DNA of 64,000 nucleotides from Balanoglossus misakiensis (taxonomy: Eukaryota; Animalia; Hemichordata), in NCBI GenBank assembly GCA_040954595.2, contig CM082593.2, positions 3,613,434 to 3,677,433 on the forward strand, written 5' to 3'. The first letter of the stretch is position 1, and every line of letters begins with the position of its first letter. The notes beneath the pieces are model-generated. The model searched no databases and was not told the origin of the DNA. It saw nothing but the letters and a program-made list of their open reading frames with translations. Positions 1-28,900 of the stretch are shown piece after piece. The translations under genes were made by a program, and so were the position numbers.

Positions 1-861
1 ATCAAGCATAACAGATCACTTGAACTATGGGATGCAAGTACAAAGACTGACCTACCATAAATTTCCATGTAAAGTGACCATACATTACAAGCACTGTACA
101 CCATACATGTACCTTTCCTGACCCTAGGCTGAGTGCCAGACATGGGCTAAATATAGAAACATGGTTCCTTTTTTTATGAGACCAGCAAAATTAACGACTT
201 AATGATCATAAATGTAGCTGGAATCTCATGTTCTTGGCTTGTTATGTTGTGGTTGTTGCCGTTGTTATCTTGGCCTTGTTAATGTTCTGTACATTTCAGT
301 CTTCTGTATTTTGAATTACAGTTGTATCCAATACTCAATAGTTTACAACCTTGAGCTGTCTGGAGCTCCTTTAGTTAACGCTGGCCTTGTCTTGTCTAAT
401 TTCTATTCCAAGGGACACTTATGTAAGTGGATCTGTTGTTACATGACGCGCGGTCTGGCGGTTCCAGACTTTGGCGAAACAGGTCCTGTTTTTTACTTGA
501 TGTTCATGTTTATATACAGCAAGCAAAAAAAAAATAACTGTCTCAATCACCATCATAATAACAACACTGTGTTTTGTTAGGAAGGGTTTTCTTCACTGTT
601 TTTGTCAGCTTGTGTTCGCCCTAGTGAATAAAATAGTGTCCGTCGCGTCGATATCTCGCCCGTGTGGTCTACGTGTACGCGTACGGCGCGCCGACGTGTT
701 CATTTCACAGGCGCTATGTCGCATTTCATTTATGAGAAGTGCGCAAAGCCGGGCAAACACGTGGTTGTTTGATGGATGTACATGATGTTTACGTGACACA
801 CAATATTAAACACATAAATACGTGTAGCTTATGAGAAATATTATACTAAAGTGAAACTCAC

Positions 862-1087
862 CGAAGACTGCAGTTTGCCATTTTAACGATGGAAACAAGA
901 AGAGCGCGTACAGTGACGCAACGTGCAGCAGCCCCATAAGAATAACATTTCTCCAGACGATCTGATACTTCCTCTTCTCCGGAGAATGGTAGTCGATTTC
1001 ATCCGGAATGCTTGTCGCATCGGGTGTCGTCGACCCATGCTCCTCCTCCGTCGCTATCGTTTGAAACACGTCGTTTCTTGGTGGCAT
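862..1087 (-). CDS. SCD: Stearoyl-CoA (delta-9) desaturase, first coding exon; gene continues beyond the left edge of the window
   Basis: MPPRND...KYQIVWRNVILMGLLHVASLYALF...KWQTAVF matches the SCD 'IVWRNVI...LH' first-TM motif. The exon ends at a G|GTGAGT donor (861). No further exon recognised in 1-860. Confidence 0.88.
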
Positions 1088-2663
1088 CTTGGTAGACCTT
1101 CTGAAGAGCTGTGATGATGGTCAACGGCGCGGCGTCAATGTATATACGGATCGGACGTTGAATCGAATATATGTTATCCTGCGCAGCTCAGGTTGTGAAA
1201 CAGGTCGCTGGCTTGAACTTTACTTTCAGGGTTTTGCTATTATTACAATGGGAGTAGAGGCGTTGAAATGACCTTAGATATCCGAACACACACTCTCATC
1301 AATCTAGAATATAGCATCAAAAAATTAAAACTTTTAATCGCATTTGAGTTTAAGATGTAGAGAAATTAATCTAGCACCGGGTTTTGTGATAAGTTTGGTT
1401 CCAATATATGAAAAACGAAAGACAAAGGAGGGGCCAGCTCTCTCACGCATATCACGGATTCATCCGTCGATTGATGCCTACCTACCTCGATAAAGATGGT
1501 TTGGACCAAATCATGTGACGTTTTCCAACAAGACTGCCACACAAATTGATCAGCTGACGGACTGCCTGTGTCACCGGCTTACAATTTTATGCGCCGTGTG
1601 CGTTTATAATTTTGGTGCCCGCTCAGAGATCATGACGCAGCTCAGATTCGATCATGCTCCTAAATTTAGACAGGGAACAATACGTTATATTCAAAGTTCG
1701 TGGGGTTGCGTTACAGTGCAGTGCGCTCAGCCCAGCCAAATCAACAATACGTCATCAGTCCAGGCTACGTACATGTGCTACAATTCAACCTTCTATGTAT
1801 AATAAGTGGGTTAGTTACGTACGAACACACGGTCGAATTATTCAATTACGTTGTATTAAACCATCCCTAAAGTAATCGTGGGGACCAAATAGACAGTCCG
1901 TTCGTATGTTTATTCATCAATTTCCCTTTTTGAAACGGATAAGGTCAATCACCAATTTCTCTTTTCGAAACATACATGTCGGGAAAACATGGATAGCTTG
2001 AGCTTATCATGTAGAAAGAAAATGCAATCTGGTGAGAGAGAAAAAAAAACAGTTGCAATTAAATTGCTTATCACAACACTGCACATATGCATTCACTTTT
2101 GAGAACTTTCTTTTCACGTTTTCTCGAACTTTAATCAAAACATGTCATGCGATTCTCTAGAGGGCGCCCCTACTACTGTGCAGATGTAGGAGGGACGGGT
2201 TAAAGGGCCATGATCGTCTTATGCGCTTGTGCCAAACCAGAGACTATGTTGGACTTCAATGCCTCATCACTTAACTAATAAATATAGAGGACCATATGTT
2301 AGCTCCGCATAGTCTTATTTTGGTCTTTGTCCATTTCGCACTCTCACATTCGAAAATGTGACGTATGGTCATGTATTTCCAATTCTCAAATACCCACCGT
2401 TTAATTGAAGGGTGCTAAAAACACAAGCGACCCATACGGTCCAACGCGCTTAACCACCTGTGAAATTTGCAGGCGCAGTCAGCGCATCATTATTCACTGC
2501 TAATAAGGTTTTTTTGTTCGTGTTGTTCTCAAGAGGTTTGCCCATTAACGCCGGTTGAAAAACATGTCTTGTTTGATCCTTTCAATGTCTTACCCTCAGA
2601 ATTAATGATGTACGGGATGACCCAAGCGACAAAGGTTTGTCCCAGGATGTGAACAAGTCAGTG

Positions 2664-2798: not shown

Positions 2799-5011
2799 AT
2801 GGCGAACAAATCTCTCCTCGTTCTGACAATCGTGTTAGGTAAGTAAGCCATTATTACAACCCAGCGTAATAATTAATTTTACTCATTTAGCGTGGAACAA
2901 AATCCACGCTAAAATATAAACCTTTTAAAATTATTATTGTTTCTGTAATTTCACCAGTATGGACGGTATTATACTGTACGACCAGTTCTTCAACATTCCA
3001 TTATCAGTTCGTCGTCATGGATGTTAAATTGTTTTGTTTTTTTATTTGATTGTCCAATAATCAGTATACTATCCTCACATTAGCTTTGATGAAGAAATTC
3101 CAAAGAGTCGAAAGTATACGTAAAGTACATGATCACCAATGGAATTACCTATCGTGGCATAGGGCCATAATGCCATACGAACATACACGGCTATGAACAG
3201 ATGTGTTTTACATCTTGATGTGTGCAGTTTAAAGCCGACCATCTGTAATTTCACAGTCTTGTACAATTTTAATTCCGTTGAATCAAAACAAGCGTTGGCT
3301 GCTCCGAATTGAACGAATAAATGACATAACGCATCGTTTTATTTCACTTTCAGCATGTGCTGCAGGCTGTATCAACGGTAAGCATAGTAACATTATGTTT
3401 GCGGAAAGTGTGATTTTAAGGATAAAATGTGGGGAAAAAATTATTTTCATTGTCAACATATGTCAGCGTAAACGCATGTTTCAAAATGGCGCAAATACAA
3501 CACAGAGAAGCTAGGGGCATAACTCTTATGAAGGCAGGTTTAGGAAAGTCACTTGACTGGCCGCCACTATAGACGGGTTTGACTGTATATGGCTATTGCA
3601 GTTTTGCCACCTTCTCACAAATTGAACGACATTTCTGTGTGTTTTAAAGGTGAAAAGTTCTACGGGTTCTGCAGTGTCATGCCCAACAAAAACTACGACG
3701 GTCCACAGGTAACAGGCGACATCAAATTGACACAAGAGGTGAGTGAGAGTGAAATAAGAATGTCACAAACTTCATTTTCTGTTATAGTTGCATTGTACCA
3801 ATAGCAGAGAAGCGGACAAATATTATAGGGTCATGCCGCAGCTCAGCTGGTCAACGTAAATTGTTTGGGGCATCTACGTTGCACACCTGTGCAAATAACT
3901 AATTGACCAATCACACGTGTTGTGATCTAGTACGGGAATGTATTGACCAATCAAAATTATTGGTGTCTAAATTAATTGGCCGAACGGTGACAATCGCGCG
4001 AATGTCGGTGCATGCTGTTTGTTTGCGCCGAAGGTCGGTCTATTTTTAACCGGAGCACAAAGTCAACGCTATTTCACAAGATTCAATGTGGCGTGTTCTA
4101 AATTACAGACCAGTACTTCCTTTATGTAATATTAATTTTATTTTTTTTGTGTTCCAGATTGGTCACCTGGCTACTCTTGATGAAATAACAATTGAAGTTA
4201 ATTTGAAGGGGTTTGATCCCACCAAGAACAAGTTACACGGCTTCCATGTCCACCAACACGGAGATCTGAGCAACGGCTGCCAGTCCACAGGTGGACACTA
4301 CAACCCATTCGGAAAAAATCATGGCGCTCCCGATGACATGGAAAGGTATAGCCACTGGAACTTTGATATGTCAACATACATTTGTGCACGCACACACGGG
4401 CACACACCACACACACATATATACATACGTACGTACATACATTCATAGATACATAACTTTATTTATTTTATATGTGCTCTCACCATAGACACGTTGGTGA
4501 CCTAGGTAACGTGGAGGTTGATTCTGAGGGAAACGTCAATACTGTAATCAAAGATGAGATGATTCACTTGGTGGGCAAGTACTCAGTAATGGGAAGAGCG
4601 ATCGTGGTGAGTTGATAATCAGTCTCTACCGTTTATTCATTTAGGCGAGATTTTGACTTCATATTCTACGAACGGGATGGAAGTTGTGTGCGGTCGAACG
4701 TTGATTCACTATATATCCACATGTAGAATAACGTACATAAACGGTGTCTTGTGTCAATCAACTAAAGATAGACTTTGTCCCTTTAAAGTTGGTTGGGTAT
4801 CCCTGAACAGTGAGAACAGTGCCAATGGTTAGTAAAGTCGCACACGCGCAGATCAGACGACCCTCTTTAAACGTTTGATGTTCTTGTTACACAGATTCAC
4901 GAGGGAACTGATGATCTTGGCAGAAAGGGCGGTGAGGGCAGCATGACCACCGGCAATGCCGGGCCCCGCATGGCATGCTGTGTGATCGGAACAAGTCCAG
5001 GTCCAAAATGA
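2799..5011 (+). CDS. SOD3: Secreted (SOD3-like) Cu/Zn superoxide dismutase, 6 exons, 191 aa
   Basis: Exons 2799-2838, 3354-3377, 3650-3738, 4158-4345, 4489-4606, 4895-5011 are all GT-AG and in frame (576 nt). Signal peptide [19 protein letters not shown]; metal ligands [27 protein letters not shown]; C-terminal [13 protein letters not shown]. Confidence 0.92.
4627..4786 (+). repeat. Interspersed repeat fragment, copy 1 (SOD intron 5)
   Basis: Shares blocks 'tttattcattt..gcgagattt', 'gttgattcactatatatccacatgt' and 'gactttgtccct.taa' with 32949-33112; ends ...gtccctTTAA like the end of a TTAA-targeting DNA transposon. Confidence 0.7.
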
Positions 5012-5941
5012 ACCCATGCACATTAAAATCAGTACCAGCTTTATCTACATGTCACAATAAGTATGCAGTCAGCCTCACCGCGTAGTTTGGTCAATACACA
5101 ACCCTTTCTAACCCCTGAACTGTCAGAGATTATTTATCCAATAGTGTGGTTATTGTCGTTGTACATTTTTTTTAACCACCAGAGAGAATATTAAAAGTCT
5201 TGATCAACATCCAGAAAATGTGCGCCGATTTGCATGCATTTTACGCAGCGCCCCTGCAGCAGAACGTCGCGAGTTGCGGCCGCGTTGATTGAAACCGTGC
5301 GAAACCCATCTTCGTTCCTTTCGACATATACTTTAAATATGGTTATAAAACTGGGGTTTCCATATAAATGGCAATTTTTGTTTCGATCAGTCAGTAAACC
5401 TTTATTACAACACATCGCTGAATCTTGCAGTGACGTCACTAAAGAGTTCACAACACAACTGTTTGCCGTTGTCGTGAGACCACGATTAGCAATCAAATAT
5501 TACATGTATTATAACATCTCGTGTCAAGAGTTCATACGCCTGTAGTCAATGGTTAACTAAAAAAGTCAAATGTCACGGAGAGACAGGGAGTTCCTTGCAA
5601 CATAATGACGCGCATGGGAAGACATTACCCGTATTATTACACCACAATCCAGGGATTGTAATCGTGATTACACCGTTGAACTACAGATGTGAAGAGATGA
5701 AGTTTGAGACCAGGTTTGCCTGTGATAGTCAGCGAACAGAACGATAACGTTCCCGGAGTCTTTTGGCTGCATTTCAAATACATACAGACACCAATTCAAC
5801 GTTCTGCAATTCAATTACAGTTTAACTATGCATGGAGGTGGGTGTTTCGGTCTCAGTGGAGCTGTACCCACCAACAGGTAATTGTGAGGTTGTGTCAGGC
5901 CACAGGTGGTCAGACAGGAAGTTTGACGTCATGGTTCTAAA

Positions 5942-7078
5942 ATGACACCTGTCTGGATGAACAGAAGGCGTAAGATGATGTCGATTGTAATGAGTGTGAC
6001 CGCCGTAATTTGTCTTCTGGCGTTCAGCAAGTCAACCCTGTTTCAAAAGCAATTATCAGCGGTGTTTATTAATGGTACTGGTTTGATATCCGACCAGACC
6101 TATTTGAAATTGGCCAAAGATGACGACGACGATTTGCGCCGCAGAATAAACCGTGAAACGCACACTCAAGAACACGGGCCTATGTTGCAAGCCAATATGA
6201 ACAGAAATTCTTCTGAGGAAAATAGCACTATACGAAGTAATACCATGCATCCGCGGGCACTAAAATCCCACCGACCAATCGTTCCGAATATTGCTCATTA
6301 CGTATGGTTTAGCAACCACGCGTTTCGCTTCGATCACTTAATTAGCATGTTAAGCGCACAAAAATTCATGCAGCCGGACAAAATTTACTTCCACACCGAT
6401 TGCGAACCTAACGGAGAGCACTGGGATGAGGCGAAACAGAAACTAGGGAGAGTTCTGCAGATTTTGAAAAGGGATAGACCTACCCGGGTTTTCAACCGCA
6501 CCTTGGTTCACCTGGAGCACAGCTCGGACGTGGCCAGGTTGGAGATCCTCGCCCAATATGGCGGCGTCTACATGGACCTGGACATCATCGTTTTGAAGTC
6601 GCTGGAACCTCTGCGCCGCTATGGCTTCGTGATGGGGCGAGAGAGCATCGTCGGCCTCAACAACGGGATAATCATCTCGTCCAAAGACTCAGAATTCCTC
6701 CAGTTGTATCACCAAGGTTACCGCCACTACAATGCAGAGTGCTGGAACTGTAATTCTGTGTTATACCCCCACAGTCTAGCCAAAGACTACCCTCATCTCA
6801 TCCACATCGAAGAAACATCTCTGGTGCAGCCGACACACAGGCAGACCGATTTAATATATTTTGGCCATTTCCCGTGGTGGGAAGGCCACTATACTGTCCA
6901 CACATGGATAAGACTTATCCTTAAAAGGGGACACATTCAGATCACATTCACAAGGGACAATATCCTGGCGTTGGACACAGCATTCGGGGAAATGTGTCGT
7001 TATATTTATCTGGGAAATGCAAAGATGACAGAAAATATCCATCACGTAGATGACGCATTCTGGACGCATGTAGTTTAA
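5942..7078 (+). CDS. GT32-family (alpha-1,4-GlcNAc/Gal transferase-like) DxD glycosyltransferase, type II membrane protein, intronless CDS, 378 aa
   Basis: Basic N-tail RRRK plus TM (SIVMSVTAVICLLAFS), stem, IVPNIAHYVW, HSSDVARLEILAQYGGVYMDLD (GGVYxDxD signature). AATAAA at 7171. Confidence 0.88.
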   Translation: MTPVWMNRRRKMMSIVMSVTAVICLLAFSKSTLFQKQLSAVFINGTGLISDQTYLKLAKDDDDDLRRRINRETHTQEHGPMLQANMNRNSSEENSTIRSNTMHPRALKSHRPIVPNIAHYVWFSNHAFRFDHLISMLSAQKFMQPDKIYFHTDCEPNGEHWDEAKQKLGRVLQILKRDRPTRVFNRTLVHLEHSSDVARLEILAQYGGVYMDLDIIVLKSLEPLRRYGFVMGRESIVGLNNGIIISSKDSEFLQLYHQGYRHYNAECWNCNSVLYPHSLAKDYPHLIHIEETSLVQPTHRQTDLIYFGHFPWWEGHYTVHTWIRLILKRGHIQITFTRDNILALDTAFGEMCRYIYLGNAKMTENIHHVDDAFWTHVV

Positions 7079-8309: not shown

Positions 8310-8645
8310 TTACTGATTTTTGAAGAAGAGTCTTTTTCTCAGCGTGTACTGCGGCGCCGGTACCTGCACGTATCCCGTGCTGCTCTCCTGGGAGACGGTG
8401 TCATTTACGACCGTCAGGATGTCCAGGATGTGAAGCCGGTCACTGTACTTTTCCAGCGCTTCCACCAGCGCTCCGACGTACCAGGACCCCTGCGAGGTGT
8501 CCCGGTAGGAGACGAACCCCGGCACGGTGGCATAGCCCAGCAGGAAGTCGGCCTGGTCCGGAATGACGCTGGTCATGCCGACGGATTCCACTGATTCCAC
8601 GGAATCCTCCTCTATGCCTTCCTGTCTCTCCTCATTCTGGCATGC
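8310..8645 (-). CDS. LRR-caspase coding exon 3 (catalytic Cys, intersubunit linker, p10)
   Basis: Acceptor tttttctccag|GCA TGC CAG AAT = ACQN; linker EGIEED/SVES; p10 IPDQADFLLGYATV...QVPAPQYTLRKRLFFKNQ*. Confidence 0.92.
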   Translation of the reverse strand, partial: ACQNEERQEGIEEDSVESVESVGMTSVIPDQADFLLGYATVPGFVSYRDTSQGSWYVGALVEALEKYSDRLHILDILTVVNDTVSQESSTGYVQVPAPQYTLRKRLFFKNQ

Positions 8646-11600
8646 CTGGAGAAAAAAAAAATAGGAAAACGGGAAAAAAAGTCAGAAACTTGATAGACAT
8701 GCAGAGAGATTGATGATTTAAAGGTACTTTCATGAATGACAGGTTATTTCCCTCTACATCAAGACACACTGACTAACCATCAAACCAGCTTTGCAAGAAG
8801 CTTGCGAACGAGAAAAAAATAAAAACACCACCCTACATGTGGTTATGAAAAAATACTTTTTCCTTTAACCAAAATACAAACAGGAAAAATAGTGGACATG
8901 TTCCCACCTGGATGAAGAACAGTTTCGGTTTTCCTCTCAGAGTTGGACACCTTGACGACGTGAACGTCCCAGTGATGTCGCTGATTCTGACCGCGATCCC
9001 ATCACTGCCGTACACGGAACCCAGAGACCCATGCGTAAGGATACAACAGACAAAGGTGTCGTACGCCTTGTGGTCCTCTTGACTCATTCGTATCAATGCG
9101 CTCATCATGTCGTCGGAACTTAGATCCTCCAGGACCCGGACTTCGTACTTCAGTTGTGTGAAAATGGACGCTAGTTTCTCTGTGAAGTAAAAAAAAAATC
9201 AAAGGAAATATCAGTCAATTCTGTTACAAACACACGCATGAAACATGGTTTTAAAGACAAAATACATTATGATTTTTGATGGTCACCAGTAGCAGGGTCA
9301 TTATATACAAACTACAACCCATAATTGGTGTTTTTTCTATCCACTGTGAGTCATTAGAAATCGATTAATACTTTGGTTGACAAGAAACTTTAGACTCTGT
9401 TTTGAGTCGTAAAATACAATACATGGCTTCTTGAGGCATGATCTATTTGTATATCAGTATACTGAAATTAATTGAACCAGATTTTGCATCTACCTAATCA
9501 TGCAATACCAAAAACACATGTCGCCGACGCTAATCAATCAATATTGAAATCAACTGAAGTATGACTTCTGGCTGAGAGACCATTAATCAAACAATGCATG
9601 CACCTGTGATTGTGAATGTATGCGAGTCATTTTAATAGTACAAGTGAACTAGCTTTGAGGCTGAGATTATTGAACGACGGCCAACTTGAGTTACTTAACA
9701 GTAAACACCCAGAATGCAATAGTTGCCAGGGTCTATGGCTGATCTGCTGAGACTGTATGGACTCTTTAATACACTGTAGGCTGACATGATTATGTGATCT
9801 TCACGGGTTCAAAAGTCAGTCGTATGTTAGAAACCTAGGAATTTACATCGCTGGGAGTCTGAGCTTTAGCAGCCAGCTGACAGTTTAACCATGTTGGCGC
9901 CATTGTTTGGTCTAAGTTCATTTTAAGATAGGTTTGATCTGTAATATGTACTTAACCCTTTCACCCCCAGTTCCCTCTTTAGAAGGCCAACCTGACCATA
10001 GAAAACAATGGGTTTGGACTGAACCATGGCGGTGAAAGGGCTACAGGGACAGAAACTACCACCTTCAGATTCTTGTGTTTCTGTTTCTACAAAAGCAAAA
10101 ACGTTACACAATGTCCCAAGGAAAAACAAATCCCTCCTCTGACAAAGAGTAAAGTCTTGAAGGGTTTTAAGTTGAATGCAGTGCAAATGGAGTCAAAATA
10201 ATGAGATTTGTGTGTAACACTCGGAAAACACTGAACTCAGGATAGGTGATCCACCTCTATAATAGGGATGGCAATGTGTATTGTGTATTAATTAAAGATC
10301 ACACACTAAACACACAAATATTCTTCAGGTCAACAACAGTGATTATATAATATTCCTTTCCATTTCAATTCACGGTCAACATATGCCATAGAATTATCAG
10401 AATTTCACTCAACTGTCTCTGACTCTCCTATTCAATTGTGGCTGTACTACAGTTGTATCCAGTTCTTTTGTTGTCATGACAACATCAATTTGCAGCTAAT
10501 CATCTGCTCCATTATGCACGTAGAAAGAATCCATATTGATTCTTGTCGTACCAGAAAGTGACATTCAAATGATTAATTTGAGATAATGGTGGATGTAAGG
10601 CTGGATAAACCACCTGGATCAAAGGATTAGCAGATTTCCTTGAGTATATCTATTATGCATAAGCCTGGCACTAACTGGGGGCATTGAACTTTCATTGCGT
10701 TAGCCAGACAAAGTCCAGAAAATAATGTTTGGTCTTTTCAAAACCTGTAATGCATTTATACGCAGTGAAGCTGAAAATGGTGATAAATTTTTAGCTGACA
10801 GTGCAATAATAGTTTTTCAGCTTTTTTTCCTTTGTTGATGAACGGCTGACCGTTCCAGCACAATAAAGGATTGTTTGATGAGGTTTCTGTTGTACATGTA
10901 CGCACCACAGAACAGAATTATTCTTGCCAACTCTCCTATGTTTGTCCACTGGATGCCCTATTGTCCAGTTTTGCTTCAATGCAATGTCCATTATTCATCG
11001 CTGTATGGCCAGACAGACCCCGCCAGATCAGAAATCAATAGAATTGTGTGTGATGGGGTTTAGGAAGGCCAGCGAACGTACATGTAGCTACAAAGTGATA
11101 TAAAGAAGGAAAGTTGTTCTCACAATGTGGCATGCGAACACCCTGTATGACGTACAACACTTTGCTTGTTTTACAAATGTTTTTTTAAACTTTTGAATAT
11201 CAAATCAGATTCTTTGAATCAAACAGCAAACAAAAACAGCCAGTACAATGTTGTTGATGTTACCATGACTACAACTCGGCACCCTCCAGTTGACTATAGC
11301 CAGTTTAAAAATTGCTGGTTCATTTTAAGTGAGTGAAAATTGGAATTTTACCTCTGCTGGCAAGAGTCAATCGGCCCTTAGCTACCAAATTATGCACTAC
11401 TTTAAAGTGTAACTTACAGATCAATTTGCAGATCACGATCTCTTTGGGCTGTCAATTAAAATTGACTAATTAGCCGTGCATAATTGCTGGCAATCAATAT
11501 TAATTAAAATTTCATTAAGTACAGACAAACTCCTTGAGGGATCCAGACGAAGATTCTTTCAGTGGATGTACACTAGCTTTGATGTCTAAAGCAACAATCT

Positions 11601-14165
11601 GTTCATTTACTCATTATGTATATTGATTGTTTGTAGAAACCTAAGGATGTTGCTTTGAGGGAACGATATTGATTTTGATGGGGGTACAAGCAAAGTGAAT
11701 GGTGACGACTGGTAATGCTTTACACAGACCGACAAGTCCATTTTCCTTTGTTGGTCTTGGGTTCAACTCCACAAGCCAAGATTTATGGGTTATGTTTATC
11801 GTGTTTACAATGGCTGTGTCAGGTTGTCCTGGTGATCAGCTGATATCTGTAACCCCTTTTTTTCAAGGTCAATTCTGTGGGCAAAGGTACACCACCAGCA
11901 TATTGCTCAATGAACATCAAGCAGTTACATTCCCAAAAGATTTTATTTGATTTTTTATGCATGCAACCAAACAAAATGCAACATTGGGACTGTACATGTA
12001 AATCTCAGGGCCAAACTTTCTAGACTAGGCAGTAAAACATCAGCTAATAGGTTTCTGAACAACAAGATCGCTAATCATAAAATGGGAACTGGTATCGTAT
12101 ATGACTATCAGTATTGTACAGCATGTTCACAATAAAATTTTACTGTCAATGTGTCATTACTAGGTGATTCGGTTAATTCTTAAGGGAAAAACCACAATGG
12201 TGAAAAAAACTCACCAATGCAACCAGTATCTGCAGTGAAAAGTATCTAACTGTAGGCTGTCTAACATTTGGTTTGAAAATAACCAAACCATGAAATGACC
12301 ACCGGAATACAATTACAGAATACGAAACTCCCATCTGTAACTGGAGTGAACCAAATTGTTTGTTGTGTACATTTTCGGTGAATGTAACTAGTCGAATATG
12401 TACATGTACATACCCTTAGCCATTCCCCTATTTGAGATTATCTTTCAATGGGTGCCTAGATTTCACAGCAAATATCAAACTTCAAGAGACACTATCAACT
12501 TTCATGAAAAAAAATCAGATATTTTGTCCAATGACCCAATTTGGCTGAGCGTTTCAATTCATCATCAAATTCTCAAAAATAACCTGTTGAATTTGAGAAG
12601 AATGCAGACGCTTTGCTCCTTGGGTTGATGGATTTTTTTATTTATGGTACTTGGCGGTTTGTTTGACTACGTGTATGTATTGTCTGTTGCTATAAACAGC
12701 GAGTGCATTTATTGTTGACCATTTGGAAACCAAACCCTAGTTTCAGCACCAACCCAGTAGAGGTAAAATATACTTTGATAAATTGTGCAAATACGCTATC
12801 TTCCAAATGACACTAGATTGCCCATATATAACTGCTTTGTCTGGTATGGCTGAGTTGTATTGACTTTACTATGAGTGTATCTATAGACAAGTCTATCTGA
12901 AATACATCTCTGGAACTTTTGTGAATTCACTTTTTGTATTTTGCAATAAAGCCCCCTTCACCAATCAATACAATATTGTATTATTTGCTTTTAAATCGAC
13001 AATTTTTTGTAAAGATCTTGCCAATGCTTACAAATTGTTAAATTGTACAGAACAACCCTATAAGTTTATTATTATTAATCTGCTTTTGCCGTGACTGATG
13101 TATGGGTAGGAGAAACATATGGAAACATTTCTCACCTTTGTCAATTTCTGTGCCGTCTCTGTCAGGAAGTTGTCTGCTTTCAGTAGGCCGGGTTTCATCT
13201 TTTGAAAAGTGATGATTATTGACAATGACAGCGATTCCACGTGGTTCGCTTGTTATCTTGTAGGCGGGTATGCCGTCGATGCAATATGGTTCTTCTTTCC
13301 TGGGACTGGTGTTTGCGTTGGCTGTGATGTGCAGTTCTTTTACGTCGATGCTGGCCAGTGATTCAGCTCGGCCGTCGGCCTTTAGCTTCGCGATGTGCAT
13401 CTTGCGCGTGCCTTCAAGATCCGCCCTCTTGTCATCTTGGTATTTCTTGATGGCTTTGATCCCCTTCTGGCAAACAGCTAACGGCGGGATAGCCAACGGA
13501 TTGCCGTTCAGCTCCAGCAGCTCCAGGTGGATCAACTCCGTGCCGAACTCCGGCGGCAACTTCTTGATCTTGTTGTCCTTCGCTTTGAACTTCTCCAAGT
13601 TCTTCAGCTCGTAGAAGGTCTCCGGAATCTGCGCGATGAGATTGTTGTTGACGTTCAACACTTTGAGTTTCTTCAGACGGGAGATTTCATCCGGGATGCT
13701 GGTGATCTTGTTGTCATAGAGATGGAGCGCTTCCAGATCCCCCAGCTCCACGGAGCACAGCGCTTCCGGGAATTCCTGAAAGGCATTCCCGGTCAACCAT
13801 ATGTGTTTCAAGTTCCTCAACTGGGCGATCTGCGAGGAGACCGTCTTCAGCCGGTTCCGACTCAGACTCAGAACCTGGAGATTTTTCAACTGGCATATGA
13901 CCGCCGGAAATGTGTCGAAGGAGTTGAACGACACGTTCAACTCTTGGAGTTTTTTCAACCTGCGCAGCTGCGGCGGCAACTCTTTCAATTTGTTCCCCTG
14001 AAGAGTCAGTTTTGTGACATTTGTATCTTTCCATGCTTCCGGGGGAACCACTTTCAGTTGTTTCCCTCGGAGCATACACTCCACTTTTTCCACTTCATTT
14101 TTCCGCTCATCTTCTTCAACCGGATTCTCCTGGTTTTCTTGTTGGGGCTGTTCACCTTTCTTCAT
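8310..14165 (-). CDS. LRR-caspase: 8 N-terminal leucine-rich repeats fused to a caspase-8/10-like peptidase C14 domain; 3 coding exons, 545 aa
   Basis: Exons 14165-13136 (phase 1), 9179-8908 (phase 0), 8645-8310 total 1638 nt, open. Junctions rebuild RDGTEIDK-E-KLASIFTQLKYEV and KPKLFFIQ-ACQN. Catalytic His in ILTHG; p10 ADFLLGYATVPGFVSYR..GSWYV..TLRKRLFF. An in-frame TGA upstream of ATG 14165 in the same exon indicates this is the start. Confidence 0.9.
8908..9179 (-). CDS. LRR-caspase coding exon 2 (p20 core with catalytic His)
   Basis: Acceptor ttttacttcacag, donor CAG|GTGGGA; DHKAYDTFVCCILTHG...CPTLRGKPKLFFIQ. Confidence 0.92.
9952..10044 (+). mobile_element. ~90-bp MITE-like element with TTAA-CCCTTTCACC...GGTGAAAGGG terminal inverted repeats (piggyBac-like ends), copy 1
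   Basis: TIRs are visible; a close reverse-complement copy lies at 29277-29369. Confidence 0.75.
13136..14165 (-). CDS. LRR-caspase coding exon 1: acidic N-terminus, 8 LRRs, LRR C-cap, linker and start of caspase p20
   Basis: ~23-aa repeats VTKLTLQGN, LQELNVSFN, LQVLSLSRN, LKHIWLTGN, LEALHLYDN, LKVLNVNNN, LEKFKAKDN, LELLELNGN; cap NPLAIPPLAVCQKGIKAIKKY; then YKITSEPRGIAVIVNNHHF. Donor G|GTGAGA at 13135. Confidence 0.92.
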
Positions 14166-15691
14166 TTTTCCCCAAAGATTGTGCTTCTTTCAATCCTTTA
14201 ATTGTAACAAAAAAATAAGTAAATATTTTTACATTCACCAAGTCATAAAGTTTACTGGTATATCCAGACTAGAACAAGAAATCAGAGAAATCCTGAACAA
14301 GTAGCCAAAGGATAGAGGCACTATGACTTTAACCTTCTCATTCTAACCATTACTTTTGTAGCTAACACTTCTCTACTCATACAATGGCAGAAGGAACTAA
14401 AACCAGTTTATATGTTTGGTTTCAATGGTGATCTTGGCATTTCATTCACATCCCATGAGGGCGAGGCCAAATGAGACAATGCAACAATCTTTGGTCTTTT
14501 ATTATTCTGTAATCTGATTACCTCATTGATTATCAGATAAAGGTGACTTAAATGAAGCTCTATAGATTGAAAATTAAAATCTTAAGTAGGGAGGGATTAC
14601 CTGAGTTTGCTTTTGATCAGATTTTTACTTACTGATTATGTCATCCTAATGTGTTTCTGACAGAATACTAAATAAATCTGCTTTAATTACATGTATAGTA
14701 CAAACATCGTTGTGATGAAGAACACGATTTTTGTTGAATAGTCACCCGCACAATGCAATTAGGGTATTACACTCTGATCATTGGTAAATTGTGTTCCACA
14801 AGGCTATAGTGAACACTGCATAACAAGCTCAGTCATAGTCACTGAGCTGGAATGAAATATAGACTGTCTGGTTTGTGACTGAACGAAGTCATGAATGTAG
14901 CCCCGGGTATGTTTTAATATTGTCCACAAATACATCGTTGTTTAGTGCCGGTGGTAATGAGTTTCAGATCGCTGATTACGACAGGTAATATTATATTTTG
15001 GCAACGGTATCTGTAGCAGACGAAACTAAAGACGGAATGCAAACAGTTATATTTGCATTGCATAGCACGAATGCGTCTATCATAATACTGCGAGACATCT
15101 TAATTAATCAGGGCTGTCAATATCACTGCGTGACACTGAATTAATCAATTAGCGCACAGACAATAATTCCTCTTTTGTCTATCTCTAAGTGGTTAGCAAC
15201 ACGACCAGGTCATTGAATATGCCAGGATTCACTTCTCCTCGTATCCATGCCTGGTATGAGTTGGAATCCCTAGCAACGCAATGTTCACTAAGCAATACCG
15301 GAACTCGATGTTCCACTGAGTGAACGCACCGATGTAATATTTCCGTTCGTTTTAAATGCCAGCTTTAAATTTCAATAAAGTTGACTTGTGCACCATCAAT
15401 TAGAACGATCGGCTTGGCTGTTCCTTGATATGGTCCAGTTTTAAACCTGCAGCTCGTTTCCTGCGAGTTCTAGCTTTTCAGCATGCAGTGCTAGTACAAG
15501 ATCGTCGACTAATAATCACACCGTCGCGTCGAGGACATTGGAAACGGAGCTATTGAAATGGACAAATGGGGTATTCATTAAGGCTTAATCGATGCGAACT
15601 TGGTCCGCGATCAACGAGTGATCCCTGTCAAATAATGTCATGTTGGACAACTTCTGCATGTCGCACTGAAGTAAACAACATAGCTACTTAC

Positions 15692-16108: not shown

Positions 16109-18567
16109 ATGATTCTCAAACTGGTGCAAAGAAGTATAAACAAATTGACACGAATCAGATTGTATTCAAGTAATTTGACTGCTGATATAAGAAGGATGAG
16201 TTCTCAGGGGAGGTTTAGAGTCTTTGTTACGAGGAATATTCCCCAGCCAGCGTTGGACATCATCTCTGCCGAGTAAGTCATTCTCGAGCTCGCTCTAGAC
16301 TGTAGCCCGCTGTGATCGCAGGTCATGACTGTCAGTATCACAGCAACCATGCTATTTTTATGCCACAATCACGCGTGCAAAATTTAAAGAATTATACTGG
16401 TGGTTCTAGATCAAGAACGCCGTCTAAATAACATTTTCTACAGAAATTGAGAATCGACCTTTTGTAAGATTGCTATGTACATGTATGTATGTACATGAGT
16501 GTACATTGTATGTAGATATGTGTGCATTAATTTTGATTAAATGGCTATTTCTTACCTGCACAGGTGTGATGTCACACAGTGGAAATCAGACAGTCCAGTT
16601 CCGAGAGCAGAACTGCTCCGCCATATTCCTGGTATGCATGGGCTGTACTGTCTGTTGACAGACAGGATTGATGGGGCTGTGTTTGATGCAGCAGGTTTGT
16701 ATTCTCTGCATATCTTCTGCAAAAGTGGAGAGTAACTGCATCGATAAAGATAGTCTTTAAGAACCACTTATTGGTTAGAAATGAAATGTGGTACATGTAT
16801 GTTTCGTAGTAGATGAAACACTGAGTAGCGTGTGAGCGTGTTCTGTTGATATAAATGTGCATTTTCAGCCATTGCAATCTTTCTATCTGAACTCCAGGGC
16901 CAAACTTGCAAGTCGTAAGCACAATGTCAGTTGGCTTTGATCACATCAGTCTGGATGAAGTGAAAAGGAGGTATGTAACACGTACATGTATTAATCTAAT
17001 ATCACCACTGATATTCGTATCATTGGTAAACTGTCTTCCTATTGTTGAATTTGCAGGTAAACCAAAACCTGTGCAGAAGTTTACTGTCTCTCTGTAGAAA
17101 TGTTATTCTGCAAATCATATACATATATATACCGCATTGAAAACTCAAACCACGATACTGTCTACGTATTGTCACCACATATGACTGCATTGTTCTTTTC
17201 AGAAACATTCCCCTTGGCTACACACCGGATGTTTTGACAGATGCAACGGCTGAGTTGACAGTGGCATTGTTGCTCTCCGTGTCGAGGAGACTAATGGAAG
17301 CAGCTGACCAAGTTAGAAAGTAAGTCTGCATTGACAAAACTACATCTCCAGGGAAGTTTCATCGAATAAAACAAACACTGCTGGTTCTCCTTAAAAAAAT
17401 AAAAATCTAAGAAAACTTACCTGGTTGGCATTCATTTCTACAACTGTGCTATTTTTGCCATTATCTCTCCAGTGGTGGCTGGGGCACTTGGAGCCCTCTG
17501 TGGATGTGTGGCAGCGGTCTCTCAAACAGCACTGTGGGAATCGTGGGCCTGGGACGAATTGGAATGGCTGTTGCTCAGCGCCTCAAACCGTTTGGAGTCA
17601 AGAGGTTTCTATACACCAGCAGAAATCCCAGGTCTGATGCAGGTGTGCTACCTGCTGAGTATGGTAAGTGGATGATTCGTGGCTTCTGATTGGCTGTTGT
17701 TGGTAATTTACATACTGCATGTCTTGTTTGGATCAAATCACAAACATGTCTTGTCTCCATAGCTTATAAGAAAATATCAAAGTAACATATTCACATATTT
17801 TCTTTCTTTTTCATTACAGTGACCCTGGACATGTTGTTAAACCAATCAGACTTTGTCATTGTCTGTTGTTCACTCACGTCACAAACAAATGGACTTTTTA
17901 ACATAGACACATTCAGCAAAATGAAAAACTCAGCCATATTTATCAACACAAGCAGGTAAGTCTGACTCGTACCATGATGAATCTACTCTTAGTTGATTTT
18001 TTTCCTGGAAATGTACCTGTGATATTTTCTCCCGACTAAAGAAATCTAAACAGTGTACCCATGCCTACACTGTCTGTTTTTCAGAATATTCTCAAAGTAC
18101 ATGTTGTTGTCCTATTGATTTCAGAGGACCTATTGTCAATCAAGATGATCTTTTAGACGCTTTAGAATCAGGTACCATAAGGGCTGCAGGATTAGACGTG
18201 ACAACACCGGAGCCCATTCCTACTGATCACCCACTTCTAGAATTAGAAAACTGTGGTAAGTAGACCAACCACTTGCCACTTATCATCCAATAGTGGTAGA
18301 ATTTTCTACACCAAAAATTGAAATTTGTCAATGTCCATACCATCTGGATAATCTGTTGTGGACTTAAATTCAAGAATAGAGGAACTTGTTTGTTGTTGGC
18401 TTTCGTGAAATCTGATTATGTCGTTCTTGCTTTTCCCGAATACAGTCGTCTTACCGCACATCGGAAGCGCAACGGAAGCAACACGGAATGAGATGGCAGT
18501 TCTGGCAGCCAGGAATCTACTAGCCGGATTGAAGGGAGAGAAACTGCCCTGTCAAGTACAGCTATAG
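16109..18567 (+). CDS. GRHPR: Glyoxylate reductase/hydroxypyruvate reductase, 8 exons, 354 aa (325 aa from the second ATG at 16196)
   Basis: Exons 16109-16272, 16564-16694, 16898-16970, 17203-17319, 17473-17663, 17820-17955, 18125-18255, 18446-18567 (1065 nt, open). Motifs [69 protein letters not shown]. Confidence 0.95.
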
Positions 18568-21500
18568 TGGATCAAACTCATGATGGATTTGATTACAACA
18601 AAAATCACTGCCACGTATATCTTTCAAACTGTTCATACTACAGTTATTTTAGATAGTACGTTAGAAAAGCTCAGAGAATAGAAATCATAGGATAGACTGA
18701 TGGGAAAAAAGCTATTCCCGATGGTGTACAAATAGTCCGGTACCAATAAGTGCTACTTTAATACCCCCCCCCCCCCAACGTTGCAGTTGTTGGTTTAGCC
18801 CTATTGTTTCGGCTTCTAGGGTGGACCTCATTATGGGGAAATGGGGGAGGAAGGTTTATGATGTATTAGCGCACATAATTGTCTTGTGTCCCACCTCAGT
18901 AGATATGTGAATTTTTTCTTCTCATTCTTTAGATAGGACTAAACTTGAAGTACTTGGTAGCTAGCTTCCTTGTGTTATGTTATTTGGACCTTTATGTACA
19001 TTAATCATGTTATGTCAGGTTTTTGTTATAGGCACTAGAATAAAATTGATTTTTTTTCCCGATCACAGTTAGTCTCTGCCTTAAGATGGTTGTACAGAGA
19101 ATACTGTGAAATTTCATGTTAAATTTTAACTTCTGATGCTGGGATCATTTTTTATGTGCATGTATGAAAACATGAGGTAGAGATTATTTGAAATATCAAT
19201 CTTTTACTTTTGGTTTGAAACATCCGGGCTGGAATTTGTTTGCCTTAATTTCCTTCAATGACATTCAAAATTTGTGGTTGAGACCCAAATATCTGAAATT
19301 TGAATGCGACGATCAAAATGGCTGGAATTTTGTTGATTTTCTTGAAAATAAAATGTTTAACACCTTGATTTGTTTTTAATTTGAAATATCTTCGACCTGT
19401 GTTGCAGAAAAGTTGAAGAATCAGCCAAGGGTGTGTTCTTCTAGGTGAAGCATATTTTTGTCGTTCGTTACTCAAATGTTCTCTTGCAGACGAGATTTTC
19501 TCACCTGAAATAACTGAAACTGTACTGCTTGTGTTGACAAATAAGGGCATTTTCACGGTATTCTAGATGCACGTCACATCTTGTCGCTGCAGCTACTTTT
19601 GTATCTGGAACAAATACTTTCACTCTATGGTTAGAACAACTTTCAAGATCTGGAAAATAGAAAACAAAAAAAGTAGTGTGCATTTTGGGAGACAAGAAGC
19701 CTGCCATTTAAAGACAGTTTTCAGAATTTGTTGAAATTTTGCGAGTCATTTTGAAATGAGAAATCTTCACAAGTCAAGGAAGTATTTCATTGATGTAGAC
19801 TTTGATGCTCTGTCAATTTCTAACGATACAGCTTGGAAGGACAAGATCCAACTTATTTAATATGCATGTTCTTGAATCATGACATGAAATTTTCTTTTGA
19901 AGCTTGTCAAATAAACATTATACAGGAAATTGTTGAAATTGGCTTTTTTTCAATAAATTTGAAGTTGCAGAAAGTGGTTATGATCTCCTACTTATATCCT
20001 ATTTAACCTTTGCACCCTGACCCTCAATGACCCTGGTACTAGATACTGCCAACAGATACAAGAGTACATTGTAATACATGTACCATAGTATGCTGCCTCC
20101 TGTTGGGTCTGAACAGCACCCTCAAGCGGCAAAGCTTTCAACCTGGTGCTTCTGGTGTCTCATGTGATCTGACACTCCATTGTGGAAAATCACAATGAAG
20201 TTGGAAACTCCCGGACCCAGTCGACATGAGAATAAAGTTTTCCCTGCTTGTCTTTTGACAAAGTTGATATAGACTTTCGCTAATGATACCACAGGCACAT
20301 ACATACCAAGCATTCCTCAAATCACAGAGACATTTCTGAAATCAAACATTTGATTTTGTTTAATCATTACTCCAGAACAAGCGAATGCAAAATAAAATAT
20401 TACACATGGCATCTCAGGGCTCAGGCAGTGTTCAACAAAATTTATTTTACTACTTTCAGCGGCACTACCGGTACTTTATTACCCCTACCCTGTATTACCC
20501 CTTGAACCAACACAACATGGTCTATTCCCATTGGTTTTAATGCTGGGAATGGACCACTATTACCATGCAAAGGGGTGACAGAGATTGACAGAATATGTCT
20601 ATTTGGCAATCAGGGAATCTTAATTACTATTTTCACATTTCACTTTCAAATAATGTATCTTCTCTTTAATTACTCCCATAATTTTTCCGTTTCCCCCCTT
20701 GATAAAGTTTCTATCATTTTGCATCATCTTCAGTTGGCAAATTTTATTTTACTCTCAGAATTTTAGCCCAAAATATGGTGAGAGTTGATGCTATTTTTGG
20801 GTGTTATATATGTGCCAAAATTTTCAATATATTATATATTTGGAAAGAATGTGCAATTTACATATTTTTGTTATTGTAGACGGCATAGAAAAACAATCTG
20901 ATTTGGCCAGGTTCGACTTTATCTCATGCCTAATTTTTCCAGCTCAAGTATTTTTTCTGCCAAAATAGATGCTCTTACCTCTCTACTTCACCCATAAATA
21001 GGATATGTAGATTTTAAATGATATGATTTAATTAAATTTAGGGAATATATACTTTACAACGTTGTTCAAAAGCTGACAGTCAATGACCAAATCATGGTTG
21101 CTTGCAAAGTAATACTACTGCAATTTAGCATTGCGTGATTACTCGCATTTTGATTTTCCTTACACGTGGCAAATCAGGTGATATTACTTAATAAAATCTA
21201 AATATGGTCATATGAATTCCATATAAGGAAAAATCTTGATATGATGCTGTGCAGCAAAGCATCTTGGGCCATCTAAGACACTGAAGGCACATTGTTCTTC
21301 CAAATATTTGCATAATGAGTTGTAAAACAGTTATTGTGATAGAATACTCTCTATAAAACTTGCATTTACGAATAAATATTTGTAAAACTCTCCTGAAATA
21401 AAAACATGATAAATATATTACAGGACCATATCTCATATACAGCTCTTAGATAAAAATAGTCTTTTCGAGTTGTAATATCATACTTTGTAAAAATAATCCG

Positions 21501-25900: not shown

Positions 25901-28900
25901 AACCATTCTAAATACCCCAAAAACTCAGTGATAAATTTATTGCTGACTATGAATGTTAATCACTCACACTTGTATGGCCTGGTCGTCCAGAAACACTGGA
26001 TTGGGACTGCAAGATAGAAAAGCGATTTGAAAATGTTTTATGAGTAAAAGGAAATTCATCTATTGATATATCAACAGACAAAATTGTGTAAAATATTAGT
26101 ATTAAAAGATATAAATTTTACATGCAAAAGTTAGTGATAGTTATTCTACAAATATGTGATTTTTAAATTCATTGCTACTACTGGATAAAGGTAAAACTAG
26201 GAATTACACTTGTAACATTTATAATTTTATTTTAAGAATACTTGCAAAGACAAAATGTAACAATCATGTTTTTTACTTAAACATTTATTCAAAGGGATGA
26301 CTTTGAATCAAAAGGTAACGGAAACATCTCCAGTAAAATTTATGTTATTGCAGTCCAAATTTTTAAGTGTTTCTGAATTAGAATTTTAAAACAAACTCTC
26401 CGATCACCTAGTTCTTTTTCCACTAATTCTACACAGGCATTTATAATGAAATGGTCAGTTTCCTTAGCATTTACAGGCTATACCATTATATCTAATGGGT
26501 AGAATTATAATTTAGGGGATGTGCAGATTTATCCATTTACTTTCCCACTACGAATATATACACCCAGATCACCCCTTAACTTACTCAATAGTGAACACTG
26601 GAGTATCCATTCTGTGTACATGTATGCGAGTGTGTGAGTGTGGATGGGGAAAAAAGATGAGCAGTAAAAGATACCAGAAAAAAAGTTAGAAAACAGAAAG
26701 CCAGACAGAAGATGAGCAAGACAACCCTTGTACCTCTATAATTGGTCTCAACCCCATTGTTCATAAATGACAGGGTTTGAACCATATGCATAGAAATGGG
26801 GGTGAAAGGTTTATTAATAGAAGGGTACGCAGATATACATATTACATGCAAAAGTGTACATGTACGGTAGACAGACACTGAGACAGTAGTCATGGAAACA
26901 GAAGCAGGCAGATTATACTTAGAGGGGAAAGTTTCAGACACATTTATGTCAGTGGGATCACAGTGACATTATTTGCAAACTAGAAGAGAGAGACTTACAC
27001 TGGTTCTGGCATTCTTATGTGGCTTCTGTTAGTTGGGTGATCGGAAAGCAGAGGTGAGGGGTGTCAGGAAAACAAAACCAGTGGGTGAATAAATATACTC
27101 TTCACACTGGCACAAACACTCAAATTTGAGTCTATATATAAACTATGATTATATCTTTCAAGTTGAGCATATATCTCACAGATGAGGTTATATAAACTGC
27201 AATGTATTTAGAGATATTGTTTTGTATCACAGACTCGGAATGTGTCTGTACAGATATAAATCTGGTTCAAGTTCACATATATACATTGTAGGTATCCTTT
27301 GGTAGATTTTAATAGTCTAATTTCTCTCTGACTACATGGAAATGCCGAAAGAGCTTTGTGAGAATATGTAAACGTAGCTGATGATATAGGCAAGGGTTTA
27401 AAGGTAACAACTAACACCAAAACTTACATATCACTTGCATTGTTGCTATCATAGGCAGTGATGTTTGTGTACATTGGCAAATACAGTCTGGCGTTTCGTT
27501 GTTTTTCTGCTTCTCTCCTAAAAGAAAATTACAAATTTTAGAGTTTGCAAAGTACATCAATTAAAAATAAAAATAATCAACAGTGCAACATTGGTAAAAT
27601 TATATCATTTTAATACATTTTAATAACTTTCCAGTGAGTCCATCTCCTGAGCACGGTCAACTTGCATTGCTTTTGATATGGCATGCAAGAAGAACATTTC
27701 AATTGGTCTGTTTGGGTCACATGGTTGTCACATAAACAAATGAACCAATGGCGTGTTCATGTTCAGAAACCAAAGTTTTGACGTTAACACTTTGTACTTG
27801 GTTGCATTGTCACGTGGGTTACTTACATGTAGGTGAAATGTCATGAATGGATACATCAGTGAATAAACCAACAAATGAATGAATGAACGAATGAATGAAT
27901 GAATGAAGAAAGTCTTCACTGATACCACACTGGACTCAAAAATATTTCACAATATGACAATGAGATGTAACATCTAACAAAGTACACAACCTCATCCCTC
28001 TTCATCTTGCTTAACCCTAACACAGACAAATCTACAATTAACACCGAACACTGTTACATTTTCACCGGTCGGCTATATGCCCTTTGAGCTCTGACCTCCA
28101 GGTCACTATTCGGCCTACCACAGAAATACACATACAGTGAATGGGAACAGCGATTTTCAATTATGGCTACTAACTTTCTGTGATAGGTTTGATTGACACC
28201 ATCCCCGAGCATGAATGCATCACCACTATACATTCCACTGGGAAATTCCACCACTACCCTGTTTAATTTAATTCAGAAATCATCGGGTAAACGGCAGCTG
28301 AACGTTTTACCTAGTTTTGGTGCCATTTTATAAGATTTATTTTAGATAGAGACTAAATGACTTAGGAAATGTTTATCGTTAAGCCAATAGCTGCACAGAT
28401 CTTTCAAGAGAGAATTTACACTTAGGCTATGCGGCAGAATTTAAGACGACCAGTTCACATGACAGCAATTACATACACGACCAAGAAACAGAAAACTTTC
28501 CATTCACTAATTTACTTCTCAAAAGAAGTGTGATCACAACAGGTATAAACTCAGTAGCCATAGAAAGATATCTGAAATTACGCTTCAGTGAAAACTTATT
28601 TACAAAGTGCAAATAGTGGAAGCAATCTCTGACAATTAACAAAAAATCCAAACTCACTGTTTCCAAGAATAACAGATGACGATGATGGCAATACAGCTGA
28701 GTAGAAACAGAATACAACCCAAGGCGATGAGGGCAGCCTCTGTCGTCTGCATTTGGTAGTTTTTGACAACTGTGTTTTCCGGTGGGCGTATGCTGATAAT
28801 TCCACCATTGAGGAAACTACGAAATAGTTCGTCCAGTTCTTCTGAGTGTGCTTCCAGTATTCTGAAAAAAAATATGAGAGAAATGTCTGCTTGTTGACGT

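Follow-up and report, generated by a model that had tools for sequence, protein, structure and literature searches.

Gene structure and domain architecture

A 64,000-nucleotide window of the acorn worm Balanoglossus misakiensis genome (GenBank assembly GCA_040954595.2, contig CM082593.2, positions 3,613,434 to 3,677,433) contains on its minus strand a gene that joins eight leucine-rich repeats (LRRs) directly to a complete, caspase-8-like protease domain (Table 1). Its three coding exons, bounded by GT donors and polypyrimidine-AG acceptors, join (1030 + 272 + 336 nt = 1638 nt) into a frame of 545 amino acids followed by TAA, with no internal stop; both joins are predicted from splice signals and orthologues. 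In Pfam scans, exon 1 matches LRR_4 (3.5e-29) and LRR_8 (8.6e-25), and exons 2 and 3 each match Peptidase_C14 (7.7e-24 and 1.5e-25, respectively). Exon 1 does not end with the LRRs but also encodes the first strand of the caspase and its S1 arginine (R336 of RDGT), so that the fusion is independent of the splice calls. The same exon matches three orthologues at 61–77% by tblastn, and the GC content of third codon positions (GC3) is high in the LRR and in exons 2 and 3 (0.63–0.77). An earlier reading of this DNA from its letters alone (the sequence-only reading) had proposed an open 545-residue coding sequence of this make-up, without signal peptide or transmembrane segment, and had placed the motifs THG, QAC, RDGT, VSYR and IEED/S in it. 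The three exons, Pfam and the structural models agree with that proposal, and the motifs lie where they were claimed; neither a signal peptide nor a transmembrane segment is evident, the highest 19-residue hydropathy being 0.97 and the value for the first 30 residues −2.2.

Table 1. Features of the LRR-caspase gene and of the genes around it (positions in the window).
Feature	Position	Strand	Remarks
Putative end of a 5′ untranslated region intron: acceptor-like poly-T tract and in-frame TGA 5′ of the ATG	14166..14215	-	
Coding exon 1, from the acidic N-terminal tail through LRR domain, long helix and linker to the first ~46 residues of the large caspase subunit	13136..14165	-	1030 nt
LRR domain (residues 29-243) with an N-terminal cap, 8 repeats and the C-cap NPLxxPPxxVCxxG	13437..14081	-	net charge +11
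Long helix (residues 236-263) that follows the LRR cap	13377..13460	-	AlphaFold2 models
Variable linker between the Asp-Gly sites D264 and D297	13275..13376	-	candidate prodomain-release sites, cleavage predicted
Intron 1	9180..13135	-	3956 nt, phase 1, GC 0.37
Coding exon 2: remainder of the large subunit	8908..9179	-	272 nt; catalytic His393 at 9033-9031
Intron 2	8646..8907	-	262 nt, phase 0, splits QACQN between Q434 and A435
Coding exon 3: small subunit to stop	8310..8645	-	336 nt
Cys436	8642-8640	-	exon 3
Asn438	8636-8634	-	exon 3
Inter-subunit site D448/S	8606-8604	-	exon 3
R482		-	exon 3, small subunit
Beta-6 Tyr534	8348-8346	-	exon 3, small subunit; followed by the stop
2-Hydroxyacid dehydrogenase gene, presumably GRHPR-like	16109-18570	+	head-to-head with the LRR-caspase gene
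DXD-motif glycosyltransferase, single long open reading frame	5927-7078	+	N-terminal hydrophobic anchor; tail-to-tail with the LRR-caspase gene
Cu/Zn superoxide dismutase exon	4050-4448	+	
Exon presumably resembling the start of an acyl-CoA desaturase	806-1120	-	no Pfam match at cut-off
Multi-exon cadherin gene	about 28600-38900	-	
SHIPPO-repeat gene	about 57700-60100	+	

The sequence-only reading had also held that an in-frame stop upstream of the ATG leaves no room for a death-effector domain (DED) or a CARD. This conclusion stands on other grounds than the one offered, since the TGA alone cannot exclude an extra exon when an acceptor-like tract lies about 30 nt 5′ of the ATG. The best upstream AG (13 of 20 pyrimidines) leads into the TGA, and two weaker ones (7/20 and 5/20 pyrimidines) would stay open in frame. 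DED and CARD profiles were made from fetched proteins, and the DED profile recovers three of three held-out DED proteins. Against 2892 six-frame pieces of the window they give nothing convincing (best DED E 0.59, no CARD match), and no DED match, hence no tandem DED prodomain of the kind that marks caspase-8/10, is found within the 64 kb. The head-to-head neighbour starts 1.9 kb away, and the longest minus-strand open frame in the space between has 61 codons. An upstream DED or CARD exon is rejected on this profile result and the 61-codon maximum. Three full-length orthologous models likewise begin with a short acidic tail ahead of the LRR. Intron 1 contains no DED, CARD, LRR or caspase match, and a hidden coding exon within it was rejected, the candidate frames having only 37 and 53 residues and no domain match.

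Caspase domain and active site

The caspase fold retains the catalytic His-Gly (H393-G394) and C436, all the S1 residues that accommodate Asp (R336, Q434 and, in VSYR, R482), and an acidic inter-subunit linker site, IEED448/S. The catalytic domain is most similar to caspase-8, and the closest solved structures are those of caspase-8 both by sequence and by fold (4jj7, target TM-score 0.88). In the alignment, Y534 falls on the F of PTFTL in caspase-8, namely the beta-6 position F468, and both F468 of caspase-8 (bioRxiv 2023.01.04.522766) and F404 of caspase-9 (PMC1088972) on this strand are described as a feature of slow-dimerising monomeric initiators. With the initiators caspase-8/10 (MEROPS C14A) the protein thus shares the S1 residues, the IPDxADF motif, the aromatic beta-6 residue and the acidic inter-subunit Asp site; it differs from them in having an LRR and a helix in place of tandem DEDs and Asn for Gly in the pentapeptide around the catalytic Cys. 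This pentapeptide is QACQN, not QACxG, a departure that the sequence-only reading had passed over. Asn438 is present in all orthologues, whereas the other LRR-caspases described below have Gly at the fifth position (7/7).

LRR domain, helix and linker

The eight repeats are modelled with pLDDT above 90 and are followed by the long helix, after which the linker is of low confidence. In a full-length AlphaFold2 model of the Glandiceps orthologue both domains are confident and the predicted TM-score (pTM) is 0.46; therefore, no fixed packing of the LRR on the caspase is predicted, which is weak evidence as it comes from a shallow alignment. Foldseek neighbours of the LRR model include Leptospira LRR proteins, RSU1 (target TM-score 0.80) and SHOC2, the latter two being protein-binding scaffolds, and the top PDB sequence match is LRRD1. 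In the ESM Atlas, the full orthologue has no usable match, and residues 200-343 fall only in generic LRR clusters. The fold is that of cytosolic LRRs of the RSU1, SHOC2, LRRD1 and Roco types. RSU1, SHOC2 and LRRD1 are not known to carry a protease. An amphioxus Roco-caspase and two Ptychodera paralogues have the same C-cap motif as the present protein; Pfam scans find no Roc-COR tandem in this protein or in the orthologue P0005, and NACHT/NB-ARC, ZU5, UPA and death domains are likewise absent from these scans.

The net charge of the LRR is +10 to +12 in 4/4 orthologues; among 138 other LRR segments, two attain 4.6 per 100 residues. Concave-face positions are invariant in 14 of 32 cases, as compared with 54 of 100 across the remaining repeat positions, and, concave invariance being similar to that of the rest of the repeats, the LRR has no hypervariable face. 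D264, D297 and D448 are each followed by G, S or A and are kept in 4/4 orthologues.

Orthologues and paralogues

Orthologous models with both domains are found in Ptychodera flava, Glandiceps talaboti and Saccoglossus kowalevskii. A search across the LRR-caspase junction returned three proteins from 135 candidates, all from acorn worms, and the present gene and its three orthologues form a clade with a support of 100 in the SH-like approximate likelihood-ratio test (SH-aLRT). Saccoglossus and Ptychodera are dated to a split that is over 370 million years old (PMC4729200). Of these animals, Ptychodera is probably the nearest to the source of the window. Identity to the three orthologues is 82/69/73% in the LRR, 82/74/76% in the large subunit, 81/82/80% in the small subunit and 57/29/27% in the linker. 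In other words, conservation of the LRR (69–82%) is close to that of the protease (74–82%) and far above that of the linker (27–57%). For Saccoglossus, the whole 542-residue protein is given by an older model, the only one in that species that joins both domains. The Ptychodera model has a 49-residue insert exactly at the intron 2 point, which is treated here as a gene-model error.

The sequence-only reading had pointed to a search for proteins with LRRs and Peptidase_C14 and without DED, CARD or NACHT. Among 346 fetched proteins (the best 120 of 1105, 120 of 301 and 150 of 18,993 matches at 1e-30), at least 11 carry both LRR and caspase domains; this number is a lower bound, the last list being dominated by giant LRR proteins. 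They comprise four records of the present orthologue group, which lacks NACHT, six further acorn-worm LRR-caspases (four from Ptychodera, one from Glandiceps and one from Saccoglossus) and one amphioxus protein of the form LRR-Roc-COR-caspase. Ptychodera has at least five LRR-caspases, and the paralogous LRRs are just 31–34% identical to the LRR studied here. Ordinary DED caspase-8 genes are present separately in acorn worms.

The six further acorn-worm proteins (P0124, P0235, P0265, P0337, P0073 and P0088) all have QACxG. P0235 and P0073 are mutually orthologous and have a very long inter-subunit linker, and P0124 and P0265 belong to a contig equal in size to one that bears two Ptychodera DED caspase-8 genes. 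Other unusual caspase models include a kinase joined to a caspase in Amphiura (P0137), a gasdermin joined to a caspase in Dreissena (P0120, partial) and a 935-residue caspase of Antedon with a long N-terminus and no Pfam death fold (P0047).

Phylogeny and origin

A caspase tree of 40 rows (44 earlier picks plus 6 new minus 10 redundant) places the group inside a 37-row caspase-8/10-like group with an SH-aLRT of 91. Support for this placing is modest, some forks are open, and the outgroups are weak and long-branched; the root is weak because one intended outgroup, a 'caspase-3-like' protein of Patiria, landed beside a DED caspase. In approximately unbiased (AU) tests, uniting all 10 acorn-worm LRR-caspases gives p 0.585 (the constrained tree being 2.0 log-likelihood units better), the present group with the amphioxus protein 0.487, all 11 LRR-caspases 0.456, and the present group with acorn-worm DED caspases 0.279. 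The four tests reject nothing, and one origin is not told apart from several.

Relation to known systems

The sequence-only reading had known of no characterised protein with this architecture. In this it was anticipated: an LRRs-caspase is listed among the hybrid genes that Zhang et al. drew from amphioxus gene predictions, and such proteins, it was suggested there, could couple pathogen recognition directly to apoptosis as a 'shortcut' (Zhang et al., 2008, Genome Biol 9:R123, PMC2575513). The 2008 gene models resemble the present protein in the joining of LRRs to a caspase and in the shortcut proposed; they differ in the pentapeptide, all of them being stated to have QACxG, whereas the acorn-worm group has QACQN. 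The amphioxus protein found here, BRAFLDRAFT_67388 (1609 residues), is different again, as it has Roc-COR between LRR and caspase and QACRG, and it is not necessarily one of the 2008 models. In its own right this Branchiostoma floridae gene model (P0262) is a Roco GTPase ending in a caspase, in which nucleotide-controlled dimerisation could drive the protease.

Searches of a literature that excludes most subscription journals gave no description of acorn-worm LRR-caspases, no occurrence of QACQN among the papers listed for it and no functional test of the amphioxus LRRs-caspase idea. A phrase search for LRR-caspase variants returned, besides Zhang et al. (2008), just a multiple sclerosis study, and the matches listed for Roco and caspase are LRRK2/Roco papers only. 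The term 'LRR' is absent from an amphioxus caspase paper (PMC3196919) and a metazoan apoptosis paper (PMC10959488), and 'caspase' is absent from the main text of two hemichordate genome papers; relevant passages of PMC8195603 deal with TRADD-N proteins. The present gene is real and long conserved and has a distinctive active-site loop, and the acorn-worm LRR-caspases are apparently an undescribed family.

Among better-known proteins, LRRs stand upstream of caspase activation in the NLR-ASC-caspase-1 and PIDD1-RAIDD-caspase-2 systems. The present protein is unlike these in having no NACHT, ZU5/UPA or death fold, in being one chain and in its caspase-8-type domain. Insect Dredd, for its part, works through adaptors. 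Dredd is also caspase-8-like and is active with a fifth pentapeptide residue other than Gly, since SfDredd, whose pentapeptide is QACQV, cleaves both itself and substrates (PMC4792459); unlike the acorn-worm protein, it has a death-fold-like prodomain (PMC2180229, PMC3141678).

Surroundings of the gene

The window contains one LRR-caspase copy, among housekeeping-type genes. The 2-hydroxyacid dehydrogenase gene has two in-frame ATGs, the first of which adds a basic leader, and its head-to-head arrangement makes a promoter shared with the LRR-caspase gene possible.

Interpretation

We give about an even chance to the reading that the protein is an initiator-type, caspase-8-like protease which its LRR brings to a conserved partner in the cell and which is then activated by dimerisation and self-cleavage. 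In place of death-effector domains, the LRR is likely what docks the protein on a single conserved partner, which is probably acidic. The zymogen would be a cytosolic monomer; its basic LRR would bind the partner or platform and thereby cluster several copies; the caspase domains would then dimerise, with cuts at D448 and perhaps also at D264 and D297, the latter freeing the protease; and the enzyme, in which the QACQN loop would have retuned activity or specificity, would act on a restricted number of substrates during cell death or immune signalling. Such a scheme would call for a partner molecule but for no death-fold adaptor. The conservation and charge pattern of the LRR fits one fixed, probably acidic partner, with different partners for the paralogues. 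Of the one-component 'sensor-protease' put forward in the sequence-only reading, the one-chain, conserved LRR-caspase without a death fold is upheld, probably as a proximity-activated initiator, whereas the word sensor finds little in a conserved LRR with a fold like that of scaffolds and Leptospira proteins.

Several observations weigh against recruitment of an active protease to a host partner. RefSeq at present annotates the Saccoglossus gene as two, an LRR protein and a caspase that part at intron 1, and the orthologues are predicted gene models throughout. The 138 LRR segments with which the charge of the LRR was compared come mostly from large unnamed proteins and form no matched control. 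A host protein and a foreign molecule that does not vary are both compatible, as the partner, with the conservation, so that a fixed microbial ligand is possible, and the LRR fold names no ligand because Leptospira proteins are also among the top Foldseek matches. In addition, the position of Asn438 is occupied by Gly in 205 of 207 other caspase domains and by Ala in two, in a comparison set that is mostly caspase-8/10, and CED-3 G360S, a change at the same position relative to the catalytic C358, disrupts CED-3 and is described as active-site dead (PMC9536578, PMC11522282). Because this conserved Gly-to-Asn change lies two residues past the catalytic Cys, activity is less certain than first assumed. 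Given SfDredd and a review consensus pentapeptide of QAC(R/Q/G)(G/E) (PMC2180229), Asp-protease activity of a QACQN caspase is likely, though not assured.

A different possibility, which we regard as rather unlikely, is that the LRR itself binds a microbial or danger molecule, plausibly anionic, and that this suffices, without a further protein, to cluster and activate the caspase. The one-chain architecture and the strongly basic LRR are in keeping with this, the divergent LRRs of the Ptychodera set look like a repertoire, and the idea has already been put forward for amphioxus (PMC2575513). However, the LRR and the protease are conserved to about the same degree, the LRR has no variable face, the gene is single in the window with housekeeping-type surroundings, neither NACHT nor another oligomerising domain appears in the Pfam scans, and the fold neighbours are of scaffold type. 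In its boldest form, to which we attach an equally low probability, acorn worms may have kept for more than 370 million years a one-chain receptor-protease whose basic LRR recognises an anionic molecule, microbial or danger-related, and sets off a caspase-8 retuned by QACQN without adaptor or NACHT, and this may have expanded into a family whose LRR-caspases differ in specificity, perhaps through the loss of Roc-COR from an amphioxus-like Roco-caspase.

The departure from Gly at position 438 in all orthologues, together with the CED-3 mutant, would also suit an attenuated or inactive caspase, a cFLIP-like regulator that the LRR would bring to a complex, there to pair with active caspase-8 and tune it; the DED caspase-8 genes retained in acorn worms are possible partners. 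We consider this unlikely. R336, H393, G394, Q434, C436, R482 and the D448 site are all kept in orthologues, whereas the active site of cFLIP itself is mutated (bioRxiv 2023.01.04.522766), and the activity of SfDredd and the review consensus speak for tolerance at this position.

Less probable still is an autoinhibited tripwire, in which the basic LRR folds onto the acidic inter-subunit linker or dimer face until cleavage at 264-297 or a competing ligand frees the protease. Charges are complementary, and conserved Asp-Gly sites flank the variable, low-confidence linker. The low pTM of the full-length orthologue model, with the limits given above, predicts no such packing, and a caspase-8-type domain that lacks a prodomain is a monomer, which has to be clustered and not released (bioRxiv 2023.01.04.522766). 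Finally, that two adjacent genes or a pseudogene were merged by misprediction is scarcely credible: the divided Saccoglossus annotation would suit it, but the caspase begins inside the LRR exon, a split there would leave it without its first strand and S1 arginine, and four species show open frames, high GC3 and the same layout.

The gene shows acorn worms to possess a caspase-8-like branch that is independent of the death fold. The group also provides a natural experiment on the near-invariant Gly that follows the catalytic Cys: whether a working caspase can have Asn in its place. Being compact and conserved, and having orthologues in animals used in the laboratory, it also makes the shortcut idea of 2008 testable with one protein of 545 residues.

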